In this document: positions 17,919-30,249 of the stretch, piece after piece
How the letters are laid out: each line of letters starts with the position of its first letter
Position numbering within the stretch: the first letter of the stretch is position 1
Notes under the pieces: generated by a model
Seen by the model: the letters and a program-made list of their open reading frames with translations, nothing else
The model's database searches: none
What the model was told of the DNA's origin: nothing
Position numbers and translations under genes: made by a program
Assembly (NCBI GenBank): GCA_041167675.1
Contig: JBEEIB010000301.1
Location: 20,287-84,286, forward strand
DNA: 64,000 nt
Direction of reading: 5' to 3'
Source of the DNA: Verrucomicrobiota bacterium
GTDB lineage: Bacteria; Verrucomicrobiota; Verrucomicrobiia; Chthoniobacterales; JAFAMB01

Positions 17919-18030
17919 AGGGCGTGAGCCTAGCCGGATTTTCTGGGCTGCCTAGCGAAAAAAAGTCAGACGCTTTCTGATTCGGAGGCGACCGTTTTCG
18001 TGAGAGCGCAATTGCACCGGCCGAAGCCAG

Positions 18031-18528
18031 CTAGATTTTGGATTGAAGAATGGATACCATTCTTCGGACGTAGCCGGCGCGACATCGCGGGCGCAGAATC
18101 TTGAGACTGTCTTGGTAAGAACCAAGCTCGAGCAGCTCTATTGTTACATCTCTTGAGCCCCAGTAGCTCATCATTGCGCGAGTGGGCATATAAAGGTCGA
18201 TCGTGTTCTTTCCCACCAGGGCAGAACCGTAGTCGTCAATGACATAAAGCTGTTTTTGGCCGAGAATCTTGAACTTGGTGCCCAGAGGGAATCTAGACCA
18301 GTCGGCGGCCGCGCTATTGCATCCGCCAACGGCTAATTGAGTACCAACCGCATTGCTCCTACCATATCGGCGATGGCCGGACTCCGAGTGCGTATATGCG
18401 GTCATCCTTACCTGCACGGTTTTCGGTGAGCCTTTGGTGGATGCCGCAGATTTGTTGTGAAAATCATCGAGCGCACAACTTGTAACCAAGAACGACAATC
18501 CCGCCGAGAGCAGGGGGAACAATTTCAT
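18031..18528 (-). CDS. 3D-domain lipoprotein (putative peptidoglycan lytic transglycosylase)
   Basis: Lipobox VTSC; MTAY, SAAADWSRFPLGT, IDDYGSALVG, TIDLY. Confidence 0.85.
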   Translation of the reverse strand: MKLFPLLSAGLSFLVTSCALDDFHNKSAASTKGSPKTVQVRMTAYTHSESGHRRYGRSNAVGTQLAVGGCNSAAADWSRFPLGTKFKILGQKQLYVIDDYGSALVGKNTIDLYMPTRAMMSYWGSRDVTIELLELGSYQDSLKILRPRCRAGYVRRMVSILQSKI

Positions 18529-18770
18529 AAAGCCCGGAAAGTTCTTGTTTCAATCGGGATGTCAACAGATATCTCCAAATTCCACATTGTCGTGAAACTG
18601 TCAGAATTAGGGGGGTGAGTCCGATTTCGCGACAAAACGCAGGCAAATTTTGTCGCTCTTTGCCCGATATTATGCCAAACCGCGTTTCGTTGGGAAGATA
18701 AAAATGGGCGAAACGGACGAGCGGTCGCGACGAGGCGGTGACCGACTAAACTCTTGGCAGACTATGCCCG

Positions 18771-19583
18771 TTAATCTACGCCGGCGACGCTTTCTTCTTT
18801 GATATCGCTAAATCGGGCAAACGCGCAGATACCGCGTTGAGAAGATCGGATGAAATTCCAGAACTCCTGGACCGAGGCCGACCAAGTCGTTTCCGCCGCA
18901 CGTTCTATGGCCTCGGTGGTTTTCAAGCCTGAATGATACAAGAGTTCATGTGCTTTTTTTACCTCGGTTCGCAAAGCCGAACCGAATCCTGCCCGGCGCA
19001 GTCCCAGGCTATTGATCCCCACAATGCTGTTCATTCCGACCGCGATCGAGAAAGGAGGGATATCTTTGCTGATTGCCGCAGAACCGGCCACCATGGATAT
19101 CGTTCCGATCCGAATCTTCTGGTGAAAGACCGCGCCACCGCCGAGAAACGCTCGGTCGCCGACCTGGACATGACCTCCCAGCAACACATTGTTGGCTAGA
19201 ATGACATGGTTTCCTATCTGCGCGTTATGTCCCAAATGCGCCCCCACCATCAGCATGTTGTGAGAACCGACGATGGTCGCGCTCCCGGGTTCCGTACCGC
19301 GATGAATCGTACAATGCTCCCGGATGACATTGCCATCCCCTAGCTCTACCCGCGTCGAAGAATTGCGATCAAACGCGAGGTCTTGCGGTAGTCCTCCAAT
19401 GACACTTCCATAGCCGATCAGGTTTCCGGATCCGATCCGAACTTCTCCAGTGAGGATTGCGTGGGCCTGAATCTCATTATCCGGGCCAATGACTGTTGGG
19501 CCCTCGATTACCACATAGGGCCCAATCTTTGTCCCCGGCCCAATTTCGGCACATGAATCGATAATTGCGCTCGGATGAATCAT
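18771..19583 (-). CDS. lpxA: UDP-N-acetylglucosamine O-acyltransferase
   Basis: MIHPSAII, hexapeptide repeats, PQDL, IRE..TIHRGT, AHLGHN, HQ, DIPPF, GIN.LGLRRAGF. Confidence 0.9.
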   Translation of the reverse strand: MIHPSAIIDSCAEIGPGTKIGPYVVIEGPTVIGPDNEIQAHAILTGEVRIGSGNLIGYGSVIGGLPQDLAFDRNSSTRVELGDGNVIREHCTIHRGTEPGSATIVGSHNMLMVGAHLGHNAQIGNHVILANNVLLGGHVQVGDRAFLGGGAVFHQKIRIGTISMVAGSAAISKDIPPFSIAVGMNSIVGINSLGLRRAGFGSALRTEVKKAHELLYHSGLKTTEAIERAAETTWSASVQEFWNFIRSSQRGICAFARFSDIKEESVAGVD

Positions 19584-19726
19584 TCGGAACTAATAGAATG
19601 CTTCCCGGCGGTCTGTCGAAACATTCGAAGAAATGAACGCGTTCGATAAGGCGAAAGCCTGGTCGGAGGCGTCCGCAGCAGGGATCAGCACCTGCCGGTC
19701 CGAGGCGGGATCGAACGGACTGCCGA

Positions 19727-21184
19727 CTAAGCCTCCGCCATTGCCGTATCGGCTGGGGCGACATCGCGACCTCGGCTCTTGGGAACCAACAGCAATAGCA
19801 GCGATGCGGCAGCAAGAAGGACCAGGTTAATTAAACTTGAGGTCACGAAGCCATGTGCGTAGTCCGCTGCCGTGGCATGAGAAGGAATTGCGGAGAAGAC
19901 GATAGCGCCAATTACCGCAATACCGGCAGAATTAGCCACCTGTTGGGCCATTGATGCAACGCCGGCAGCGGAACCGGCGTCTCGCGCGGGTACCCCGCTA
20001 AGCACCGTATTGTAAAGCGGAGCAGTAACCAGACCCCGGCCAACTCCGTAGATGAAGCAGGTGAAAACAAAAGGCAGAGAGGCCTGGCCGTGGCTTGCGT
20101 TGGCCTGAATTGACATGCAAACGAGCGAGATCGCCAAAACTCCTGCGCCAAGATGCAGCGAATTCCGTCCGAGGAGACCGTTGAGCTTTCCAGAAAACGA
20201 AGATCCCACCAGGAATCCGAACGAGAATGGAGCGAGCAAGAGTCCGGCGTGAAATGGATCCAGTCGCAAGCTGAGCTGCAAGAACAGGCTTAGCACCAAT
20301 ATCATCGAAGTGTGGCCGGCGAAGTAAATGCAAGTGACCAGAATTCCGACCATGAATCCTCTGTCCTGGAACAGACGGGGCTCGATCAATGGGGATCCTC
20401 CGTCCAACGAGTAACGGCACTCGAATCGATAGAATGCCAAAAAGAGAGGGATGCTGGCTGCCAGGGCTCCCCATGCCCATTGTGGCCAGCCAGCATCTGT
20501 GCCCTCCATGAAAGGCAGCGAAAACAAAAACAGCGCGATCGTCAGTAATACCGTCCCAATCAAATCGACACCGGGCGGGTTCTTGGCCTTCGATTCGTCC
20601 AAGATGAGAGACGCGGCCAGAATGGTGATTAGCCCAAGAGGAAGATTAATGAGGAAAATTGGTCTCCAACCCAGGTGGAACAGATCAGCTTGGATCAGAA
20701 AACCGCCTAGGATTTGGCCGACAATCGAGCCGAACCCGATCATCGCGCCGTAAATGCTGAAGGCGAGACGCTTCGACGATCCAGTGAAATTAACCTGAAT
20801 GAACGAGAGAGCCTGAGGAAACATGACTGCTGCAGCGCAGCCCTGCAGCAGACGCCAAAATACCAATGTTCCGGCATCGCCAGCCCAGCCACAGAAGGCG
20901 GACGTCGCGGCAAAGCCTGCCATTCCCAAAATGAAAACCTTTTTCCGGCCAAAGATGTCGCCTAGCCGGCCTCCGGTGATGAGACAGACGGCATAGGTCA
21001 GACCGTACCCGGCGACAATCAACTCGGCTTCGCTGAAGCCTGCGTGTAAAGAGTTCTTGATCGACGGGATGCCAATATTGGCAATGAAAAAATCAATGAC
21101 TCCGAGGAAAGGCCCCACTAGCAAGATAAGGAGGGATATCCATTTATTTCGCTCAACCTGACCTGATCCAAGCCGGTTACCCAT
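19727..21184 (-). CDS. MFS DHA2 (EmrB/QacA-like) efflux transporter
   Basis: DFFIANIG.PSI, GGRLGDIFGRKK, RLLQG, GWRPIFLINLP, many TM segments; ATG 21184 preferred over the 21286 ORF start. Confidence 0.92.
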   Translation of the reverse strand: MGNRLGSGQVERNKWISLLILLVGPFLGVIDFFIANIGIPSIKNSLHAGFSEAELIVAGYGLTYAVCLITGGRLGDIFGRKKVFILGMAGFAATSAFCGWAGDAGTLVFWRLLQGCAAAVMFPQALSFIQVNFTGSSKRLAFSIYGAMIGFGSIVGQILGGFLIQADLFHLGWRPIFLINLPLGLITILAASLILDESKAKNPPGVDLIGTVLLTIALFLFSLPFMEGTDAGWPQWAWGALAASIPLFLAFYRFECRYSLDGGSPLIEPRLFQDRGFMVGILVTCIYFAGHTSMILVLSLFLQLSLRLDPFHAGLLLAPFSFGFLVGSSFSGKLNGLLGRNSLHLGAGVLAISLVCMSIQANASHGQASLPFVFTCFIYGVGRGLVTAPLYNTVLSGVPARDAGSAAGVASMAQQVANSAGIAVIGAIVFSAIPSHATAADYAHGFVTSSLINLVLLAAASLLLLLVPKSRGRDVAPADTAMAEA

Positions 21185-21335
21185 TTTAAGGCTGGCCGGT
21201 GGATGCCTGAGAAGCCGGAAATTGGCGTTCTTTTGGTCATTAGGAAAAGGCGTACGGACCAAGAGACGATTCATAGGCTGGGGCAAAGTAATTTGAATAG
21301 ATCAATAAGTGAAATAGCTGGTTGCGCACGCTCCC

Positions 21336-21350
21336 ATCTGAAATATAGAT
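21336..21350. promoter_or_regulatory. LysR-type operator (T-N11-A)
   Basis: ATCT-GAAATAT-AGAT dyad between divergent MFS and LysR genes. Confidence 0.55.
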
Positions 21351-21406
21351 TGATCTGGCTGACCGGCCGCGCAGCCGCGCGTCCGTTTGTGAGCCGCATT
21401 AGGGCG

Positions 21407-21499
21407 GTAGGGATGTGCTCCCGCGAGTCCGTTCCGAACCCGGATCGGCCGGAGCTGGTCCTGACCGAATGCAGAGCGCACGCGCAGGAGCACGTCCCT
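21407..21499. repeat. REP/REPIN-like inverted-repeat element
   Basis: GTAGGGATGTGCTCCCGCGAGT (from 21407) is inverted against ACGCGCAGGAGCACGTCCCT (21480-21499); GTAG end as in RAYT-associated REPs. Confidence 0.55.
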
Positions 21500-21520
21500 T
21501 GAAAGGCACACCAGAACGGA

Positions 21521-22420
21521 GTGACGATGGAGCTACGACACCTACGCTATTTTAAGACCGTCGCGGAAGAACTGAGTTTTACCCGAGCCTCGGCATTGCT
21601 CCACGTAGCTCAATCCGCGGTGAGCGCGCAAATTCGGGATCTGGAAACCGAACTCGGCATCGCGTTATTCGAGCGCAACAGTCGTCAGGTTCAACTCACC
21701 GCAGCCGGTAAAATCTTCTTGAGCGGAACTGATCAAATTTTTCGCACTTTGGAAGATACCGGACGAAAACTCCGCCGGATTGGTCGAGGGGATGCTGCCT
21801 CCCTCGCTATCGGCTTCATCGGCGCTCAGAGCCACGAGTGGATGCCGCAAGTGCTGAAGCGATTCCGAGCGGAGCACCCTGGTGTCGAAGTCACGTTAGC
21901 GGAGATGGTACCTTCTCAGCAAATGGAGGCGCTCCTCGCCCGAAGTCTGGATATTGGTCTAGTTGGCCCGATCGACGGAAAACCGCCGCCTGGCCTTCGA
22001 CTGGAATGTATCACCGAAGAAGATCCGATGGTTGGAGTTCCGAACGATCACCCCATCGCAAAGCTGGACTGGGTCTCTCTCGCGCAGCTTCGGGATGAGC
22101 CATTTATCTTTACGTCCAGCAAGAATTCTCCGAATTACCGAGCTTGGTTGTCCCGGTTGTTTAATCGGGCAGGTTTCACACCCAGAGTTGTGCAGGAGGT
22201 AGATCGGGCGCGCACCGGTGTCCAATATGTTGCCGCGGGATTCGGTATCTCCATTTTTGCAGAACATATCAGCCGGCTGCCTGCGCCGGGTGTCAGCTTC
22301 GTTCGGCTCAGGCCAGTTGGCCCCAAAATCCGATATGGAATTGCTTGGCGGAGAGGGCCGGTAACCGAAGTAGTTACCCGCTTTATCGAGTATTCGAAGG
22401 ATCAGTATCGAAAGAAATAA
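21521..22420 (+). CDS. LysR-family transcriptional regulator
   Basis: MELRHLRYF..VAEELSFTRA..LHVAQSAVSAQIRDLE.ELG..LFER. Confidence 0.96.
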   Translation: MTMELRHLRYFKTVAEELSFTRASALLHVAQSAVSAQIRDLETELGIALFERNSRQVQLTAAGKIFLSGTDQIFRTLEDTGRKLRRIGRGDAASLAIGFIGAQSHEWMPQVLKRFRAEHPGVEVTLAEMVPSQQMEALLARSLDIGLVGPIDGKPPPGLRLECITEEDPMVGVPNDHPIAKLDWVSLAQLRDEPFIFTSSKNSPNYRAWLSRLFNRAGFTPRVVQEVDRARTGVQYVAAGFGISIFAEHISRLPAPGVSFVRLRPVGPKIRYGIAWRRGPVTEVVTRFIEYSKDQYRKK

Positions 22421-22452
22421 CGCTGACACGGTAACGCCGGTAATGCCGGGAA

Positions 22453-22488
22453 TGGATCTGGCGCCTCGATTGTGGTGCGTTAGCAACT
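22453..22488 (+). repeat. Left arm of a 36-bp inverted repeat (partner 23467-23502)
   Basis: TGGATCTGGCGCCTCGATTGTGGTGCGTTAGCAACT; 35/36 identical to the reverse complement of 23467-23502. Confidence 0.9.
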
Positions 22489-22630
22489 CTTGCCTGACTC
22501 CGTTAATTAATACCGGCTATTGGTATTACCGATTACCGATAGGTAATGACCGATACCCTCCCGCGCGGAAATCCGTTCGCGGCGTTCTCGGCGCTATCGG
22601 CGCTACCGTGCGTTGTCGGCGTTCCTCTAC

Positions 22631-22803
22631 TTAAGCGATCACTCCGGCTTCCTTAAAGCTGAAATAGCCGGTACTGCCGTTGTGCGGTGTGCCGATAATC
22701 ACATGATCGTGCAGCGTGATTGGCAAGATTCTCGAAGCTTCGGCGACGCGTCGGGTTAATCTGCCGTCTGCTTCACTCGGTGAGGGATCGCCCGACGGAT
22801 GGT
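22631..22803 (-). pseudogene. Duplicated 3' fragment of radC (direct repeat of 23550-23722)
   Basis: Near-identical 173-bp copy at a 919-bp offset, encoding [18 protein letters not shown]...HDHVIIG...[11 protein letters not shown]-stop; weaker similarity continues about 40 bp past the stop. Confidence 0.95.
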
Positions 22804-22944
22804 ATGTGGACTGAATAGTTATGTGGGCGCCGCAGCTGTGATGCGCGCCTAGTCAGCCTGGGCAAGGTCCCAACGAATCAGCTGCTAAACATAACTGCGG
22901 CTTCGACAACCAGGAAAGGCCGCTCCTTTCGAACGACACCTCCG

Positions 22945-23382
22945 TCAAGCCTGGCAGCTTGACTCAGAATCTACGTCTGGAGGAAATGGCCACATGATTC
23001 GAAACTCACCGGAAATAATCTGGATGCCCCGCCAGATGAGTTTGCCGGCAAAGTTTGTCTCGGGTGGCTTTTTATTGGGCGCAGCTTGCAGGCGGAGCGT
23101 TCCGAACGCGAACAGGCAGTCTCCTCGAATCACGCAGCCTGTTAGATCGCCTGATGCAATCTGGAGAGCATCCCGACAAAAGTTTGCAACGCCGCGTAGT
23201 CCAACAAATCCTTGAAAGTACTTCGCTGAAGGTGAGGAATCAGACAAAGTCTGTTGCTGCGAGCTACCAGAAACAAGGGCCCATCTTGCTTGGTCGTCAA
23301 CGACACTTGCAAGGGAAGCGGCGACGTGTCCGGTGTAAAGAGCCTCGCAAATAATTTCGGCGATTTCAGAGCGTTCCATCAT
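22945..23382 (-). CDS. Hypothetical protein, possible SnoaL/NTF2-like fold
   Basis: 145-aa ORF; N-terminal helices, DDQARW, G..G...F, GDCLFAFG.LRL pattern typical of NTF2-like proteins. Confidence 0.5.
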   Translation of the reverse strand: MMERSEIAEIICEALYTGHVAASLASVVDDQARWALVSGSSQQQTLSDSSPSAKYFQGFVGLRGVANFCRDALQIASGDLTGCVIRGDCLFAFGTLRLQAAPNKKPPETNFAGKLIWRGIQIISGEFRIMWPFPPDVDSESSCQA

Positions 23383-23466
23383 ACTTCTAGGTCTGGTCCC
23401 CTCTTATCGGCACTGAGGTTTCCGGCTTAAACAGGTATGTTATCGGCAACAGCGACAATTTAAAGC

Positions 23467-23502
23467 AGTTGCTAACGCACTACAATCGAGGCGCCAGATC
23501 CA
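23467..23502 (-). repeat. Right arm of the 36-bp inverted repeat (partner 22453-22488)
   Basis: AGTTGCTAACGCACTACAATCGAGGCGCCAGATCCA. Confidence 0.9.
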
Positions 23503-23549
23503 GTTTCCGGCGTTATCGGCGCTCCCGTGCGTTTCCGGCGTTCCTGTCC

Positions 23550-24248
23550 TCAAGCGATTACGCCGGCTTCCTTAAAGCTGAAATAGCCGGTACTACCGTT
23601 GTGCGGTGTGCCGATAATCACATGATCGTGCAGCGTGATTTGCAAGATTCTCGAAGCTTCGGCGACGCGTCGGGTTAATCTGCCGTCTGCTTCACTCGGT
23701 GAGGGATCGCCCGACGGATGGTTATGAACGAGAATAAACGAGAATGCGGAATGCGTGATTGCGGCTTTAAAAATTTCTCGAGGATGAGCCAGACTTTCGT
23801 TGAGAGTTCCAAGGGAGATCTCTGGCACGGCGATGAGTCGCTGTTTGGCATCGAGTAGCACGGCTCGAAGGGATTCGCGGTCCAACAGACGCATCTCGGG
23901 GCCCAGCAGATCGTAAATTGTCTGCGGGTTATCGATCGGCTCGTTCCTGATCCGCTCTGCCGCAAGGCGGGCTCCGACCGCGAAGGATGCCGCCAGCTGG
24001 AGTCCTTTGGCTGAGCCGATACCTTTTACCTTCGCTAATTCCAAGACGGAAGTTCGAGCGAGACCGGCAAACGATCCGAATCGTTGCAAGAGCTCTTCGG
24101 CCAACGCGATGACGTTGGTACCGCGAGTCCCCGTCCTCAGCAGAATGGCGATTAGTTCAGCGTCACTCAGCGCAGAAACACCGCGCGATAATAGCTTTTC
24201 TCGCGGTCGCTCCTGTAAAGGTAGCTCATGAATGGTGCAGTCAATCAC
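23550..24248 (-). CDS. radC: RadC family JAB/MPN-domain protein
   Basis: ERPREKL, LSDAELIAILLRTG, Hh[31 protein letters not shown]; GTG 24248 likely start. Confidence 0.95.
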   Translation of the reverse strand: MIDCTIHELPLQERPREKLLSRGVSALSDAELIAILLRTGTRGTNVIALAEELLQRFGSFAGLARTSVLELAKVKGIGSAKGLQLAASFAVGARLAAERIRNEPIDNPQTIYDLLGPEMRLLDRESLRAVLLDAKQRLIAVPEISLGTLNESLAHPREIFKAAITHSAFSFILVHNHPSGDPSPSEADGRLTRRVAEASRILQITLHDHVIIGTPHNGSTGYFSFKEAGVIA

Positions 24249-24391
24249 TGAGAAACATATAATTAAAGAGTTGTAATAACTGCAAGCTCGTTTTTGAGTC
24301 AAATAAGGGACCGAAACTAAAACCCTTTGGGTCGGTATCTCTCAATTTTGAGCAAGCAAACCGAGCATTCTGCGCCTACAATGCCAACCAC

Positions 24392-24724
24392 ATGAAAAAA
24401 CTATTGCTCAGTTTGTTATCAATTGGGGCGCTCGTTGGTAGCGCAAATGCAATGGCGCCCTTAGGGCCGTCTATGATCAATCATTATCGGCAAGGTGACC
24501 AGCGCACCATAGTCGTTCCGGCCTCCGACGGGATCTATAATAATGCGTTTCTTGGACCGTTACACCGAAAGAGCAGCTTTGTGTTCCTTGGACCATTGCA
24601 TCGCGGGACTAGCTTCGCGTTCCTAGGACCGTTACACCGAAAGAACAGCTTTGTGTTCCTTGGACCATTGCATCGCGGCGGTCGCTTCGCCTTTATTGGA
24701 CCGCTCCATCCTGAGAAAGCCTAG
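24392..24724 (+). CDS. Small secreted protein with five tandem 12-aa F[LI]GPLH[RP] repeats
   Basis: Sec signal MKKLLLSLLSIGALVGSANA (AxA site); repeat units differ mostly at synonymous positions, supporting this frame. Confidence 0.8.
   Translation: MKKLLLSLLSIGALVGSANAMAPLGPSMINHYRQGDQRTIVVPASDGIYNNAFLGPLHRKSSFVFLGPLHRGTSFAFLGPLHRKNSFVFLGPLHRGGRFAFIGPLHPEKA
24545..24724 (+). repeat. 36-bp tandem repeat x5 in an A-B-A-B-C arrangement (72-bp higher-order unit)
   Basis: Units start at 24545, 24581, 24617, 24653, 24689. Confidence 0.92.
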
Positions 24725-24744
24725 TTTAAAATTCGTAGCCGCGA

Positions 24745-24778
24745 GATCCTGGCCGAAAGAAAACTTCGCGCCGGGATC
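24745..24778. terminator. Hairpin between convergent genes, possible bidirectional terminator
   Basis: GATCCTGGC-CGAA...TTCG-C-GCCGGGATC; no clear U-tract. Confidence 0.4.
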
Positions 24779-25277
24779 AAGGTGCAATGAAGGTCGCGTG
24801 ATCAGCCACGACTTTCCAGCCATCCGGGAACTTCCGGAAAATTGCCGTATCGGTTGAGTACGAATTCCGGTTACCGGTTCGAACAGTCCACCAACTGAGC
24901 GCGAGAGCCAGATCTGGACCGAGGCTTTGAATTTTGACTCGCTCGATCGAACAAACGGCCATGTCTCGACGATCAGGATAACTTCGCTGATATGTCGCCA
25001 GAAGATTGTTCCAACCGATGACTTGTTCCCCATCCGACACAATCAATAAATTGTCTGACTTCCAGAAACACTCCATGTAATGCTCAATATCGCGAGCGTT
25101 CCACAGCGCTAGCATTTGGTTCATCACACCGTAAATTGCATGGTCGTCCGCATTCGCGGGAGTTGATGGCACTGAGGGTTTGTTGGAATCGAAGGTCCAA
25201 TCGCCGTATGACTGGCCATCCTCGGCAATCAAGGCCTGCGACAACGAGACCAGAAAGATGGCAATAAGAATTCGCAT
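24777..25277 (-). CDS. Secreted NTF2-like protein (DUF4440/YybH family)
   Basis: Signal peptide; WNARDIEHYM..FWKSD.L, GW..LL..Y.RSYP....M, TAIFRKFPDGWKVVADH. Confidence 0.85.
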   Translation of the reverse strand: MRILIAIFLVSLSQALIAEDGQSYGDWTFDSNKPSVPSTPANADDHAIYGVMNQMLALWNARDIEHYMECFWKSDNLLIVSDGEQVIGWNNLLATYQRSYPDRRDMAVCSIERVKIQSLGPDLALALSWWTVRTGNRNSYSTDTAIFRKFPDGWKVVADHATFIAP

Positions 25278-25535
25278 TACGGTTGGTTAAGGCCCGGGCG
25301 ATTTCTGACCCGGCCCACTGAGGGTAGCAGGCCGAAAAAGCAGAAGGCTATCTAATACGTAAAGTTTTTTAATCAAGGAGTATGTAAAGTTTTTCAGGAT
25401 CAAGGAGTTGCAGTATCGAAAAAGCGATGATTCTGAGGTCCAGCGATCGGCTCCTCCTCATCGCAGCACTACTCCATCGACTCGATCGCTCCGCGAACGA
25501 GGACGACCGTTCGATGCCCTCGCACCCGGGTTGAG

Positions 25536-26972
25536 TTAGCCCAGTAGTCCGAGACCGAGCTGAGGGAATATGCCGAAGAGGAAAATCAGAAGCACCAGCG
25601 CTGAGATGGTTACGGTTGAGAGCCGGCTCACCGGAATTACCGAGTTATTGCCGACAGCGGTTTGCCAGTACATGGCTCTGACCACTTTGAGATAATAGTA
25701 GAACCCGCAACCTACTGTGACGACGCCTAATACCAGGAGCAGGAATTGCTGTGATTGGTAAGCGACTTTGAACACCAGGAATTTGCCTAAAAACCCAGCG
25801 GTCAGCGGTACACCGGAGAGTGACATCATCGCGACGAGCAGACCAAAAGCAAGAAAAGGAGAGCGTTTTCCGAGACCATTGAAATGCGCAATGTCGTCAC
25901 CTTCGGAATGCTTCGCCACGATGATCAAAATAAGAAAGGAAAGCAGAGTCATCAATAGATAGGCCGCCAGATAGACGACCACCGCCAAGCCGGCATCAAA
26001 CGCCCCTACGCTGGCTACGGCCATAAGCAAGTAACCGGCGTGCCCAATACTCGAGTAACCAAGAAGCCGCTTAAAATTGGTTTGCGGGAGAGCCGCAAGA
26101 TTGCCGTAAATCAATGTCGCGGCGGCTAAGACAACCATGGCCAAAATCAACTTGTCCCCGATCGCCGGTAGACGCTGGAAGGTTTCGACGACACGTAAAA
26201 GAACGATGAATCCGACCGCCTTCGACCCCACTGATAGAAACGCAGTGATCGGAGTCGGCGCCCCTTGATAAACATCCGGAACCCAAAACTGAAATGGCGC
26301 GGCCGCCACTTTGAATCCTAGACCGACCAGGACCAACATCAAACCAAACAACAAACCGTGCAGGTTACCGACCGGAATTGAGCCGAGCGCCTGACCGATG
26401 TCTGCCAAGTTGGTGTGGCGCGTAATTCCATAGATCCAGGTAACGCCGTACACAAAAAAGCCGGTCGACAACGCACCGAGAATCAAATATTTCGCACCTG
26501 CTTCCAGCGAAGCGGCATTCTTCCGCGTGAAAGCGACGAGTGTGTAGAAAGAGACGGTGACCAATTCCAAGGATACAAAGATCAAGATGAAATCGGTGGC
26601 GGAAGCCATCCACATCATTCCTGCGCAAGTGAGTATCGGTATCGAATAGAATTCTCCCAAGCCAGCGTCAGGTGATGTCCCATGAACATAGGCGCGGATG
26701 GTGTCCGCATAGTCGAGCGACATTACTAAGATAACGATCGTGGTCAGGACCACGAATTTCTTAAAGAATAGAGCCGCTGCATCCTGGGTATAACCAGCTA
26801 CCCCGCTGTGGCTTGAAACCGAACCAAACTGCAAAAGCAAAAACACCGCGGCCAACCCGATGATGCCCAACCAAGCGATCAGGTTGCGACTTTGTTTTTC
26901 CGCGAATGCCTCAAACAGGAGAAGGCACAATCCCAACCCGAGAACCAACAGCTCTAGAATAATGGGCGACAT
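25536..26972 (-). CDS. nuoN: NADH-quinone oxidoreductase subunit N
   Basis: GEFY, LEL, EAGAKY.ILGA, FKVAAAPFQFWVPDVYQGAPTP, KRLLGYSSIGH, GFLGKF. Confidence 0.96.
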   Translation of the reverse strand: MSPIILELLVLGLGLCLLLFEAFAEKQSRNLIAWLGIIGLAAVFLLLQFGSVSSHSGVAGYTQDAAALFFKKFVVLTTIVILVMSLDYADTIRAYVHGTSPDAGLGEFYSIPILTCAGMMWMASATDFILIFVSLELVTVSFYTLVAFTRKNAASLEAGAKYLILGALSTGFFVYGVTWIYGITRHTNLADIGQALGSIPVGNLHGLLFGLMLVLVGLGFKVAAAPFQFWVPDVYQGAPTPITAFLSVGSKAVGFIVLLRVVETFQRLPAIGDKLILAMVVLAAATLIYGNLAALPQTNFKRLLGYSSIGHAGYLLMAVASVGAFDAGLAVVVYLAAYLLMTLLSFLILIIVAKHSEGDDIAHFNGLGKRSPFLAFGLLVAMMSLSGVPLTAGFLGKFLVFKVAYQSQQFLLLVLGVVTVGCGFYYYLKVVRAMYWQTAVGNNSVIPVSRLSTVTISALVLLIFLFGIFPQLGLGLLG

Positions 26973-26977
26973 AAAGG

Positions 26978-28459
26978 CTATTTGAGAAAGAGGCGAAATC
27001 CCGGTTCAACCACCTGAAGGATTATCTGGGGGGCGAACCCAAAAAACAGAAGCGCAGCGACTAACAGCACCACCGGCCAGCCAACCGATAGACTGACGTC
27101 TTGTACGCCGCTCCAACGCTGGGAACGTTCGCCGAAGAATATTCCACGATAAGCCCGGAGCATATAAACCGCGGAGATGACAAGGCCCCACAATCCGCCA
27201 ACCGCCGCCCATTGAAAGCCGTTGAATGGCGAACCGGGAGTCGCGGTCTTAAAGGCGCCGAAAAAGATCAAGAGTTCGGAAGCGAAGTTGGCGAAGCCTG
27301 GCAATCCGATCGAAGCAAAGGTCGCCAGGCCGAAAAGAAAACTCAGCAACGGCATCGACTTCGCTAGGCCGCCCAGATCGCGGTAATCCAGTGTTCCGGT
27401 TTGTTTCCGCAGCTCACCGCTAATGGCGAATAGCGCGGCGATCGACAGTCCGTGCGCCAACATGAGCAAGGCGGCACCATCGACTCCGATCAAATTTGCG
27501 CTTACCACCCCAAGAAAGATATAGCCCATGTGCATCACGCTGGAGTAGCCCAGCGTGAGGTCGAGTTGCTTCTGCGCGATAGTTACGAGACCGACGAAAA
27601 TAATGTTTCCTATCAGCAACAGAAGAATCAGCCAGGTCCAGTGCCGAGCTGCCTCTGGCATTAGCGGGAATGCGATCTGCAACAATCCATATAACCCAAA
27701 CTTTTTGAGCACGCCGGCATGAAGCATCGAGACTGGAACCGGGGCCGAAGCATATGCTTGTGGTGCCCAGGTATGAAAAGGGAATAGGGAGACCAGCGTG
27801 CCAAAGCCGATGAGCAAAAGCAGAAATATCGAATTGGCTCCAGATCCGGCGAAAACACCCGAAGCGGCCATGGCCTGCAACCGCGGAATATCAAAGGTGC
27901 GCTGCTGATCTGGAACCAGCAGATAGAGACCGATCAATCCGACCAAAAGGATAATGCTACCGATAGAAAGATAGATTGTGATTTTCCAGGCAGCAGTTTG
28001 GCGATTGCCGGTTCCCCAAATTCCAATCATCAAGAACGTCGGAATTAGTGCAAGTTCGTGAAACGCGTAGAAAAAGAAAAGATCAAGCGAGGCAAATGCC
28101 CCTGCGGCAGCAGCCGCGATGAACATAATGCAAGCCATATAACGGTGAGAGTAATCCTCGACCGTTGGTGATACCCACGTCGCGGCCAGCGCCACCAGCG
28201 ACGTAAGCAAAAGCATCGTCGCGTTCAAGCCATTGACGCCGACGACAAATTTAAGATCCCAAGGGACGACTAAGGGAAATCCAGAGACAAATTGATATCC
28301 ACCTGCGTGGTGATCGTATCCGAGGAAAACGATGAGCGCTGAGACCAGAGCCACGATGGTGCCGGTGATGGCAGTTCTGCGAGCGGGCAGCCCGGCCAGA
28401 ATCGCGAGTCCGGCGACCAATGGCGCGAGATAGGTGAGGTGAACCAGCAGCGTAATCAT
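26978..28459 (-). CDS. nuoM: NADH-quinone oxidoreductase subunit M
   Basis: DLFFFYAFHELALIP, FPFHTWAP, YSSVMHMG, AHGL, GLPGFANF..E; ATG 28459 overlaps the nuoL stop. Confidence 0.95.
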   Translation of the reverse strand: MITLLVHLTYLAPLVAGLAILAGLPARRTAITGTIVALVSALIVFLGYDHHAGGYQFVSGFPLVVPWDLKFVVGVNGLNATMLLLTSLVALAATWVSPTVEDYSHRYMACIMFIAAAAAGAFASLDLFFFYAFHELALIPTFLMIGIWGTGNRQTAAWKITIYLSIGSIILLVGLIGLYLLVPDQQRTFDIPRLQAMAASGVFAGSGANSIFLLLLIGFGTLVSLFPFHTWAPQAYASAPVPVSMLHAGVLKKFGLYGLLQIAFPLMPEAARHWTWLILLLLIGNIIFVGLVTIAQKQLDLTLGYSSVMHMGYIFLGVVSANLIGVDGAALLMLAHGLSIAALFAISGELRKQTGTLDYRDLGGLAKSMPLLSFLFGLATFASIGLPGFANFASELLIFFGAFKTATPGSPFNGFQWAAVGGLWGLVISAVYMLRAYRGIFFGERSQRWSGVQDVSLSVGWPVVLLVAALLFFGFAPQIILQVVEPGFRLFLK

Positions 28460-30249
28460 GATGCGAACAGGATGAGGTAGAGCAGCAGGACCACTCCAAG
28501 ACCGAAAAGGAACGCATACGCTTGGAGATTCCCGATTTGGAGAAATCGAAGGGCAAACCCGCAACTCCAGGTCATACCGCCGAGCCCGCGAACAATACCG
28601 CCGTCAATGATCCAGCGGTCAACAAAACCGGCAATCTGAGCGAGCAAATCCTGAGTCCATTTGACCAGCGCAGAGTAAAATTCGTCGATGTAAAAACGGT
28701 TAGCAAAGAGGGGAATCGATATTGGATCTTTCGATTTCTCCCGATAGAAAACAAATCCGACAAAGCTGCCGCCCAAAAACACTGCCAGCGAAACCACGAT
28801 CGCCAGGACCGGTACGCCCTCGCGTTCGGGCACCTGAAGGAAGAATGTGGAGAGTGGAGGAAAACCGATGATCGCAGCCGGAATCGCTAGAAGGACGAGG
28901 GGGATCGTCATTACCGGAGGTGATTCCTTGGCGTGAGCAGCGGCTTCGGATCGATGCGCGCCGAGAAACGCGACCACAAAAAGGCGCGCCATATAGTATG
29001 CCGTGAAGAACGACGCTAACTCGATCACTAAGGCGGCTACGATGTTGTGCTCGAAAGCGGAAGCTACAATTCCGTCTTTGCTCCAGAATCCGGCGAACGG
29101 AGGACAGCCGGCCAGGGCCAAGGCGCCAATCAGAAAGGTCCAGAAGGTGATCGGCATTTTGCGTTGCAATCCGCCCATCTGCCAGATGTTCTGCTCGTGA
29201 TGCAGGCTGATAATCACTGAGCCTGCTCCCAAGAACAGAAGGGCCTTAAAGAAGGCGTGAGTGAATAGATGAAGGAGTGCAGCCTCGGGCACTCCCAGCC
29301 CCAGAGCAGAGACCATCAGGCCGAGTTGGGAGAGCGTCGAGTACGCCAGGATGCGCTTAATATCATCCTGTTGCGTGGCCATTAGAGCCGCCAGAAGCGA
29401 AGTGATCAGGCCGATCCAGAGAACCACGGTCAAAGCGATCGGAGCTGGCTCAAAGAGGAAGAAAACTCGGGCCAGCATGAACACACCGGCTGCCACCATG
29501 GTCGCGGCATGGATCAGTGCCGAGACCGGGGTCGGACCTTCCATCGCGTCAGGTAACCAAACGTGGAGCGGGAATTGAGCAGATTTGCCAACTGCGCCGC
29601 AAAAGATAAAAATGGCGGCCACGTTGAGGTAAATCGGATTAAGCCCGAGTGTGGACCATTTCGGTCCTAGCTCCTCAAACATCACCGTGCCGGAAGCCGA
29701 CCAAACCATTAGGATTCCGATCATGAACCCGAAGTCACCGAGGCGGTTTACGATGAATGCCTTATTCGCCGCGTCAGCTGCGCTCGCTCGAGTAAACCAA
29801 TGGCCGATCAGTATATAGGAGCTGACACCTACCAACTCCCAAAAGATGAACATCATGATGAAGTTGTTGGCCAGCACAATGCCGAGCATCGAAAACATGA
29901 ACAGCGACAAGGCCGCGAAATAACGCGAACGCCCTCGCTCATCTTTCATGTAGCCGATCGAGTAAATGTGGATGAGCAATCCCACGCCGGTTACTACCAG
30001 GAGCATCATCTTGCTGAACTCGTCGATCTGGTAACCGAGCCGGACTTGGAAGACGCCGAGATCGATCCAGTCAAAGCTGGCGTTTTGGTGGGGACCGGCA
30101 AAAACCGTGAGACTGGTAAGGAACGAAATTGCCACTGCCGTCACCGAGAGGTAGGAGCTAGCCTTTCTGAACGGCTGAGTGGCCACCGTGATGAGCGCGG
30201 CGGCGATCAGGGGCGAAAAAAGGATAATCCAAGGCGCCGAGTTGTTCAT
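28456..30249 (-). CDS. nuoL: NADH-quinone oxidoreductase subunit L
   Basis: WELVGVSSY.LIG, NRLGD, GKSAQFPLHVWLPDAMEGPTPVSALIHAATMV, YSTLSQLG, HAFFKALLF. Confidence 0.97.
   Translation of the reverse strand: MNNSAPWIILFSPLIAAALITVATQPFRKASSYLSVTAVAISFLTSLTVFAGPHQNASFDWIDLGVFQVRLGYQIDEFSKMMLLVVTGVGLLIHIYSIGYMKDERGRSRYFAALSLFMFSMLGIVLANNFIMMFIFWELVGVSSYILIGHWFTRASAADAANKAFIVNRLGDFGFMIGILMVWSASGTVMFEELGPKWSTLGLNPIYLNVAAIFIFCGAVGKSAQFPLHVWLPDAMEGPTPVSALIHAATMVAAGVFMLARVFFLFEPAPIALTVVLWIGLITSLLAALMATQQDDIKRILAYSTLSQLGLMVSALGLGVPEAALLHLFTHAFFKALLFLGAGSVIISLHHEQNIWQMGGLQRKMPITFWTFLIGALALAGCPPFAGFWSKDGIVASAFEHNIVAALVIELASFFTAYYMARLFVVAFLGAHRSEAAAHAKESPPVMTIPLVLLAIPAAIIGFPPLSTFFLQVPEREGVPVLAIVVSLAVFLGGSFVGFVFYREKSKDPISIPLFANRFYIDEFYSALVKWTQDLLAQIAGFVDRWIIDGGIVRGLGGMTWSCGFALRFLQIGNLQAYAFLFGLGVVLLLYLILFAS

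Follow-up and report, generated by a model that had tools for sequence, protein, structure and literature searches.

The stretch of DNA analysed herein (the window) comprises 64,000 nucleotides of contig JBEEIB010000301.1 from an uncultured soil bacterium of the Chthoniobacterales (Verrucomicrobiota), and carries on its plus strand, at 24392..24724, an open reading frame (ORF) of 110 amino acids plus stop which encodes a tandem-repeat protein with an apparent export signal. Across a spacer of 52 bp between the two convergent stop codons (24725..24776) it faces a gene on the minus strand (24777..25277) for a protein of 166 amino acids with an NTF2-like fold and a signal peptide-like N-terminus of its own. 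The two genes are shown to form a module, which is conserved and has been duplicated whole, and which points to a two-protein system not described so far.

The layout of the repeat gene is the one read in the initial annotation, with which the ORF agrees exactly in sequence and position: a signal peptide, a spacer that holds an LGP and five repeat units are all seen, the signal by the AxA rule. Residues 1-20 (24392..24451, +), consisting of MKK, a hydrophobic core and SANA, look like a Sec signal cleaved by signal peptidase I (SPase I), with the probable cleavage site placed by the same rule, and this signal peptide is kept in 12/12 rows of an alignment of the family (alignment A2). Residues 21-51 (24452..24544, +) make up the conserved, non-repeated N-terminal segment of the mature protein, which reads M-x-P-L-G-x5-H-Y-x-x-G-D-x-R-T-I-V-V-P and includes P-L-G-P; the columns without variation in A2 are M21, P23, L24, G25, H31, Q34, G35, D36, R38 and T39. 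Then follow five repeat units with the core [AV]-F-[LI]-G-P-L-H-[RP] (24545..24721, +), as delimited by ORF reading, Tandem Repeats Finder and codon comparison: AFLGPLHRKSSF at residues 52-63 (24545-24580), VFLGPLHRGTSF at 64-75 (24581-24616), AFLGPLHRKNSF at 76-87 (24617-24652), VFLGPLHRGGRF at 88-99 (24653-24688) and AFIGPLHPEKA at 100-110 (24689-24721), all on the plus strand.

The codons alternate between the units exactly as had been claimed, with CCG TTA CAC CGA in units 1 and 3, CCA TTG CAT CGC in units 2 and 4, and CCG CTC CAT in unit 5. Across the 8 codons of the core the unit types A and B differ by 5 synonymous changes on ~6.5 synonymous sites and by 1 non-synonymous change on ~17.5 sites; that is, synonymous change between A and B units has reached saturation and yet the peptide hardly varies, which bears out the selection at the protein level asserted in the initial annotation. 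Tandem Repeats Finder gives a period of 72 bp (2.2 copies, 86% matches, score 249) beside a weaker 36-bp period, and the number of differences per 36 nucleotides is 3 between units 1 and 3, 4 between units 2 and 4, and 10 between units 1 and 2. A recent 72-bp duplication fits, since units 1/3 and 2/4 are so close, and the A-B-A-B-C pattern that had been ascribed to such an event is thereby supported. Moreover, the ratio of non-synonymous to synonymous substitution rates (dN/dS) is 0.07-0.22 over the N-terminal 45 codons of the repeat gene in four orthologues. On these sequence comparisons the ORF is shown to be a real gene, selected at the protein level, whose product carries a putative export signal; the original observation at this locus is confirmed, far beyond chance.

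Known families offer the repeat protein no match: there are 0 Pfam families at E<=1, the sole NCBIfam line is Phr_nterm (E 0.34), lying over the signal peptide, and the best feature score in the ESM Atlas is 0.79, under the useful range. Ten diverse family proteins likewise have no Pfam match above gathering, and with 11 family proteins searched in Pfam no known structural repeat family is matched, which agrees with the view of the initial annotation. The promoter and terminator scan gave 0 promoter-like and 2 terminator-like sites, numbers in line with shuffled sequence, and no convincing terminator in the 52-bp spacer; Rfam over 18000-30000 and PADLOC gave 0 matches each.

Homologues that keep the reading frame and vary in the number of cores had been predicted, and they are found, orthologues carrying 2 to 10 units. 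Of 698 candidates in the word-index search, 15 are homologues at E<=0.01, all of which derive from metagenomes or metagenome-assembled genomes (MAGs), are labelled 'hypothetical' and have the same signal peptide and N-terminal segment followed by 3 to ~7 units; among same-genus orthologues the unit number is 2 in L006, 4 in L004 and 10 in L005; and in paralogues at 30-39% identity the frame, the signal peptide and the N-terminal motif are all kept. Against 1.84 billion representatives, phmmer gave 22 matches at E<=0.001, of which ~6-9 are judged true relatives, namely P0004, P0013, P0016, P0019, P0020 and P0025 and possibly P0023, P0030 and P0035, with P0020 and P0035 assessed from their result rows only. 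The other matches are by inspection eukaryote-like repeat proteins or apparent translated repeats of CRISPR (clustered regularly interspaced short palindromic repeats). For example in P0024, P0026 and P0031 a block FQSPLHRGTxFN recurs, and by inspection these look like translated CRISPR arrays, i.e. false positives. A word-index search with the repeat protein of L008 type scored 0/3060 candidates, composition filtering being the probable cause. A phylum-wide DNA pattern of three spaced P-x-H-P codon groups matched 67/401 genomes and was discarded as too permissive; among the listed matches only the one on contig C293 of the window's own genome (G000) is a true array, the others being low-complexity or unrelated, and the sample held 9 other genomes of the window's order, none of its taxonomic family. 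As far as searched, the repeat family is confined to uncultured Chthoniobacterales. As for expression, metatranscriptome contigs from three libraries of three studies cover 24411-24644 (X16), 24577-24775 (X17) and 24665-24993 (X15), which is a weak sign of expression because RNA libraries can contain DNA. Among soil DNA runs, fourteen contain at least half of the sampled words.

The convergent gene encodes a protein with a signal peptide-like start, a W-x-F-D-S segment and an NTF2 cone, as read from Pfam, AlphaFold2 (AF2) and Foldseek. It scores 28.5 bits for Pfam AtzH-like (cut-off 27) and 26.4 bits for DUF4440 (cut-off 25.2), and stays under the NCBIfam cut-offs of SgcJ/EcaC (25.9 vs 33.95) and HpxZ (23 vs 135); no Imm-NTF2 Pfam model is found for it at E<=1, and no toxin domain is found in the repeat protein. 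Judged by these profiles it is a marginal member of DUF4440/AtzH-like and not of Imm-NTF2. The AF2 model, with a predicted local distance difference test score (pLDDT) of 83, forms an NTF2 cone, for which the best Foldseek match is the NTF2-like 3b7c (E 4.9e-10), followed by AtzH (6bjt), SgcJ, ketosteroid isomerase and CaMKII hub domains. Its dN/dS among orthologues is 0.04-0.29. A search of longer proteins for partner fusions gave 0/436 candidates at E<=1e-10, weak evidence that no fusion exists. The remark of the initial annotation that no modifying enzyme is adjacent is wrong insofar as it implies an isolated gene, given this NTF2-like gene with a predicted export signal 52 bp downstream.

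The pairing of the two genes is seen far beyond the window. By tblastn, the partner adjoins a repeat gene in L001, L002, L004, L005/L010, L006, L007/L012, L008, L011 and L013; in the relatives this covers every locus with a credible repeat match, down to a partner identity of ~33%. The other neighbours differ by locus: RadC and nuoN stand in the window, with RadC kept in three orthologous loci only; an ORF like the iron-sulfur subunit of succinate dehydrogenase/fumarate reductase, assigned by eye, is found in L002, L011 and L013; and the NTF2-like gene is the only one common to the paralogous loci. Because the pairing persists while the genomic context differs, the repeat and partner genes travel as a module. 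The window's own genome carries two paralogous repeat genes in addition to the window gene. The first, in L002, has units of 14 amino acids (AATGPFHSITEFEL), and a paralogue of the NTF2-like gene stands after it in convergent orientation. The third array, of 12-residue units (AFGMPTHPVNSY), is cut off at the start of contig C293. Contig C146 opens with sequence for this same peptide tail and for the remainder of the third array protein, and has a convergent NTF2-like gene at C146:343-843. With this third pairing read across the overlapping ends of C293 and C146, 3/3 arrays of this genome are paired, and so are all three distinct copies of the NTF2-like subfamily. Assembly is interrupted within or beside the third array, and the end of C667 is a partial near-duplicate holding the 5' part of the C146 NTF2-like gene; evidently, the repeat arrays of this family cause short-read assemblies to break up.

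A profile of nine partners (alignment A1, in whose numbering D63, Y67, Y96, R113 and H160 are invariant), scanned against one genome per species, gave 70 loci, 68 of them in MAGs titled Verrucomicrobiota, Verrucomicrobiae or Chthoniobacterales and 2 in MAGs titled Acidobacteriota. In 26 of these 70 loci the partner gene has a convergent tandem-repeat ORF immediately downstream, making 28 modules, as L018 and L069 hold two complete modules each, in tandem. The spacer between the convergent genes is 29-190 bp in the intact related modules, and in L022, L039 and L041 a frameshifted array reaches right up to the partner gene. Among the 44 unpaired loci there may be some false negatives, given that short-read assemblies break at long arrays; near-identical partners are in fact found unpaired in L032 and paired in L033.

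The unpaired loci have features of their own. Other genera of the Chthoniobacterales show a strong expansion of the exported NTF2-like subfamily, a MAG carrying several copies, and no repeat gene is found within 2.5 kb in L027, L029-L032, L034-L038, L040, L042-L049, L051-L059, L061-L064, L066, L068, L073 and L075-L083, where the neighbours are unrelated genes; unpaired copies stand in tandem in L035, L046, L052 and L063. The two loci from Acidobacteriota-titled MAGs, L045 and L064 (Terriglobia, Bryobacteraceae), carry NTF2-like genes on very short branches beside Chthoniobacterales copies, and L045 is near-identical to L034, which suggests binning contamination or very recent transfer. Moreover, L078 (1311-1724, -), L079 (1306-1641, -) and L081 (131-859, -) have ORFs with a hydrophobic N-terminal stretch and an 11-residue Gly/Trp-rich repeat, GGYGGGWINGRGG...WVNRW, located ~600 bp (L078, L079) or ~1.5 kb (L081) upstream of unpaired NTF2-like paralogues; these may be a different repeat partner, or a coincidence. 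Upstream of another unpaired paralogue, an ORF in L040 (1699-2109, +) ends in a Met/Pro/Lys micro-repeat, MEPMKPMEPMKP...MKPMH.

The history of the pairing was approached by a quick IQ-TREE analysis of 75 distinct partner sequences, with identical rows and rows <120 amino acids dropped and with support from the Shimodaira-Hasegawa-like approximate likelihood ratio test (SH-aLRT). Paired sequences number 29 and unpaired ones 46 of the 75. The label paired or unpaired needs 9 changes on this tree vs 23.4 in shuffles, and 0/500 shuffles came as low; the unit type also tracks the partner clade. Because all deep partner lineages and 10/11 rows of the window's clade are paired and the label needs so few changes, the pairing looks ancestral, and the unpaired paralogues would have expanded later in other genera. 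Co-inheritance alone would cluster the label, and so the tree is evidence for a stable module and not proof of contact between its products.

Elsewhere in the neighbourhood, the RadC gene (23550-24302, -) is touched by a repeat structure. A direct repeat of 220 nucleotides (22584-22803 / 23503-23722, 94% identical) brackets an ORF of 145 amino acids (22945-23382, -), an inverted repeat of 36 nucleotides (22453-22488 / 23467-23502, 97% complementary) lies around the same ORF, and the second copy of the direct repeat overlaps the 3' end of the RadC gene. The segment 22453-23722 looks like an insertion that duplicated the 3' end of radC, and the Rfam search over 18000-30000 has no match there.

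Across the family, the unit consists of a shared core of 8 residues, A-(F/V/M/I)-x-x-P-x-(H, or R/K/Q)-P, in 2 to >50 copies, and a post-core linker of 2-7 residues that varies freely, the protein ending 3-5 residues past the last core. Because linker length varies freely, the unit period takes values of 10, 11, 12, 13, 14 and 15 amino acids. The unit types include AVLGPIHPCR., AVLMPIRPKS., AVLMPTHPRG., AVTLPWKPSSE., AVTVPWRPASEF, AFLPPTGSRV and VFG[AG]PTHPGNGL, as well as AFFMPTHPQQDL, AFTIPPHPQQGV, AFNMPTHPPRLI, AFVMPFRPRRAT, AMFMPTQPTHARL, AFYLPTHPTSEGL and AFFVPPPPRSEEQV; the commonest, AFTMPTHPPQADL with the core AFTMPTHP, is present in 36 copies in L050 (526 amino acids) and in at least 54 copies in L025 (720 amino acids, open at the locus end). 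As counted by eye from the repeat ORFs of the family loci, the His position is His in 23/30 distinct proteins and R, K, Q, P or missing in the other 7 (L013, L018a, L020, L021, L026, L067 and L069a). The window protein has no Cys and its repeat unit no Met. Directly after the signal peptide, many members have a second motif, A-(M/A/G)-x-P-(L/P/F/M)-G-x(4-5)-x-H-(Y/F/I/L)-(R/K), which is MAPLGPSMINHYR in the window protein and occurs also in the paralogues L002, L011 and L013. One branch of the family, represented by L007 (1165-2514, +), L021 (3106-4338, -) and C293/C146, has a C-terminal extension after the array in which AMLPLGxExGRHIR stands three times with acidic or Ser-rich spacers between, resembling the post-signal motif of the window protein. 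In the AF2 model of the repeat protein, made from the 12-row alignment A2 with a pLDDT of 43, secondary structure is limited to a helix of residues 2-16, and disorder is predicted for the array. Taken with the free linker and the varying number of copies, this model fits short motifs on a disordered chain better than a solenoid or a cross-beta fibre.

We propose tentatively that the intact array is a multivalent string of short linear motifs, each of which is bound or acted on by the NTF2-like partner outside the cytoplasm, a reading which we hold to be quite possible though short of probable. Both products would be exported by Sec and act in the periplasm or beyond, where the array would stay an uncleaved polymer and the partner would bind or act on each core, with the N-terminal motif perhaps as its primary docking site; the copy number of the units would set the valency, which would change quickly by unit duplication. 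We infer here both a contact of the two products, physical or enzymatic, and an array that escapes cleavage.

Several points weigh against this proposal. The case for direct contact of the two proteins is drawn from the co-occurrence of their genes; these genes are convergent and therefore not co-transcribed; and the clustering of the label on the partner tree is in part simple co-inheritance. The NTF2-like protein can also occur with no array at its side, as 46 of the 75 partner sequences lack a repeat gene within 2.5 kb. Complex prediction for the mature partner (residues 20-166) and the repeat protein (residues 21-110), run without controls, gave 0.22 vs a mark of 0.32, and counts neither way. 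Moreover, the disorder prediction comes from a shallow alignment of 12 rows, the expression evidence is contigs of RNA libraries that may contain DNA, and all genomes involved are uncultured MAGs.

Alternatively, the exported array might be cut into proline-containing peptides of 10-14 residues with signalling or antimicrobial activity, the N-terminal motif serving as leader and the partner as maturase or immunity protein, which seems to us unlikely. The arrangement of signal, leader-like segment and repeated near-identical cores, real and family-wide, is what such a precursor would have, and the unit number indeed varies from 3 to ~7 among the near-identical relatives P0001-P0015, with units evolving in concert. 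Fungal precursors of the KEP/dikaritin type and insect proline-rich antimicrobial peptide (PrAMP) precursors of the apidaecin type likewise have a signal, a pro-region and tandem near-identical units in variable number; some units of this family are proline-rich with P-x-H/R-P as in insect PrAMPs, and AVLMPTHPRG, AFVMPFRPRRAT and AVLMPIRPKS presumably resemble the PRP/PHP motifs of such peptides. Multi-core precursors of RiPPs (ribosomally synthesised peptides that are modified post-translationally), e.g. those of cyanobactins, also have a conserved leader-like segment followed by repeated cores, and bufferin precursors carry a Sec signal as this repeat protein appears to do. In bufferins a Cys-containing DUF2282/BUF precursor goes with an adjacent multinuclear non-heme iron-dependent oxidase (MNIO, DUF692), whereas the window protein has no Cys, no Pfam match and no MNIO neighbour. 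Precedents for parts of such a scheme are on record, namely Sec-exported RiPP precursors, i.e. bufferins (10.1101/2024.03.18.585515), insect PrAMPs encoded as pre-pro-polyproteins (PMC11549390) and NTF2-fold immunity proteins (PMC3482391).

What tells most against cutting is that no cleavage motif is conserved between units. The RK or RG at which the cores had been said to end is indeed present in the window, with RK after the core in 2/5 units only, but orthologues show HKK, HRR, HPT or HPC instead, and post-core basic residues are absent in most relatives; orthologues continue as HPTGSF or HPCR and paralogues as HSITEFEL or HPVNSY, without a basic pair, and units such as AFLGPLHPTGSF, AATGPFHSITEFEL, AFGMPTHPVNSY and AFTMPTHPPQADL have no basic processing site. 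The analogy with neuropeptide and KEP precursors, drawn in the initial annotation from (di)basic sites, thus fails for most family members. KEP/dikaritin and PrAMP precursors are eukaryotic and have units bounded by conserved dibasic or dipeptidyl sites, none of which is conserved here; nor is a processing enzyme linked, the only conserved partner being the NTF2-fold protein. Unlike in RiPP systems, no RiPP enzyme class, RiPP recognition element (RRE), protease or exporter adjoins the repeat gene, and in the differing contexts no protease, ATP-binding cassette exporter, known RiPP enzyme or RRE is linked in any. Arrays of >50 units in >700 amino acids, or of 2 units only as in L006, would be unusual for bacterial precursors, and the convergent order is atypical of toxin-immunity or precursor-maturase operons. 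An immunity role for the partner meets the absence of any Imm-NTF2 model at E<=1, and a literature search did not find its NTF2 fold as a known RiPP maturase.

It is also conceivable, though rather improbable in our judgement, that the repeat protein is self-sufficient as a His-based metal buffer, an adhesive or matrix protein, or an amyloid or solenoid fibre, and that the partner is linked indirectly or acts as a chaperone. In its favour stand one His per unit in 23/30 distinct proteins, Met-x-x-His in the commonest unit (AFTMPTHP), the alternating hydrophobic residues S-F-A-F-L ahead of a G-P turn in the window unit, and the variation in copy number, a usual trait of surface and matrix proteins. 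The metal-binding alternative raised in the initial annotation is nevertheless weakened by the replacement (R, K, Q or P) or loss of His in 7/30 and by the window unit having no Met, since His/Met metal-binding repeat proteins have invariant ligands in every unit. The amyloid-like alternative loses ground as well, because the register of a solenoid or cross-beta fibre would not easily bear a period that ranges over 10-15 amino acids among relatives, and because the AF2 model is disordered, without strands; moreover, unlike functional amyloids (CsgA, FapC) and beta-solenoids, the family has no fixed register, no Pfam repeat family above cut-off among 11 family proteins, and no adjacent secretion (curli/Fap-type) or nucleator genes. 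The 3/3 pairing in the window's genome also calls for a more direct link with the partner. Finally, that the ORF is a mis-called product of a DNA-level tandem repeat without a functional protein is hardly credible and essentially excluded, for although the repeat DNA is open in several frames (all six over the arrays in L016 and L025), the same frame, signal peptide and N-terminal motif persist across paralogues at 30-39% identity, synonymous change between units is saturated with the peptide conserved, and dN/dS is 0.07-0.22.

As to function, the module's closest analogues would be polyprotein precursors of peptides on the one hand and, on the other, NTF2 in its recognition of disordered repeats that contain Phe. 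The NTF2 fold serves enzymes as well as protein or peptide binders, and NTF2 itself recognises a disordered array of short Phe-containing motifs in the phenylalanine-glycine (FG)-repeat nucleoporins. Most units here start with A-F, and some have F-x-F-x-G or x-A-F-G, which may be taken as analogy only; unlike the NTF2/FG-nucleoporin pair, both proteins here appear to be exported. Imm-NTF2 proteins are another case of an NTF2-fold protein that recognises a protein, but they lack a counterpart here, where neither an Imm-NTF2 match at E<=1 nor a toxin domain is found. NTF2-fold immunity proteins are on record in PMC3482391. As to the relatives DUF4440, SnoaL_3, AtzH-like and SgcJ, the partner narrowly passes the AtzH-like and DUF4440 gathering thresholds and is predicted to fold as an NTF2 cone; unlike these relatives, it appears to be exported, has the conserved N-terminal W-x-F-D-S and belongs to an expanded Chthoniobacterales-specific subfamily, and the solved relatives give no indication of its ligand.

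A further step, which we consider quite doubtful, would be to regard the pair as an extracytoplasmic peptide-maturation system, in which an exported NTF2-fold enzyme would modify or cut the cores of a Sec-exported precursor that has a docking leader, or as a prokaryotic analogue of the FG-repeat/NTF2 system, in which an NTF2-fold protein would bind a disordered array of Phe-Pro motifs multivalently. If the maturation reading were true, the module would correspond in bacteria to the polyprotein peptide factories of eukaryotes, and would be the first RiPP-like class whose maturase has an NTF2 fold.

To sum up, what had been one odd ORF becomes a defined two-gene module, with an array of 8-residue cores, a docking-like N-terminal motif and a dedicated NTF2-fold partner. 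A word-based search of the open-access literature found no paper on the repeat family or on a pair of an NTF2-fold and a repeat protein, and the family merits a model of its own because current libraries leave it blank. The module is lineage-restricted, and its general kind, exported tandem-motif proteins with a dedicated partner, is known. Chthoniobacterales are abundant, mostly uncultured soil bacteria whose exported proteins are largely uncharacterised, and the DUF4440/NTF2-like superfamily is very large and mostly unassigned. If the partner binds the array, the two proteins would represent a multivalent motif-reader pair of a kind new to the envelope of bacteria; if it modifies or cuts the array, they would represent a new ribosomal-peptide route outside the cytoplasm and a new function of the DUF4440/NTF2-like proteins.

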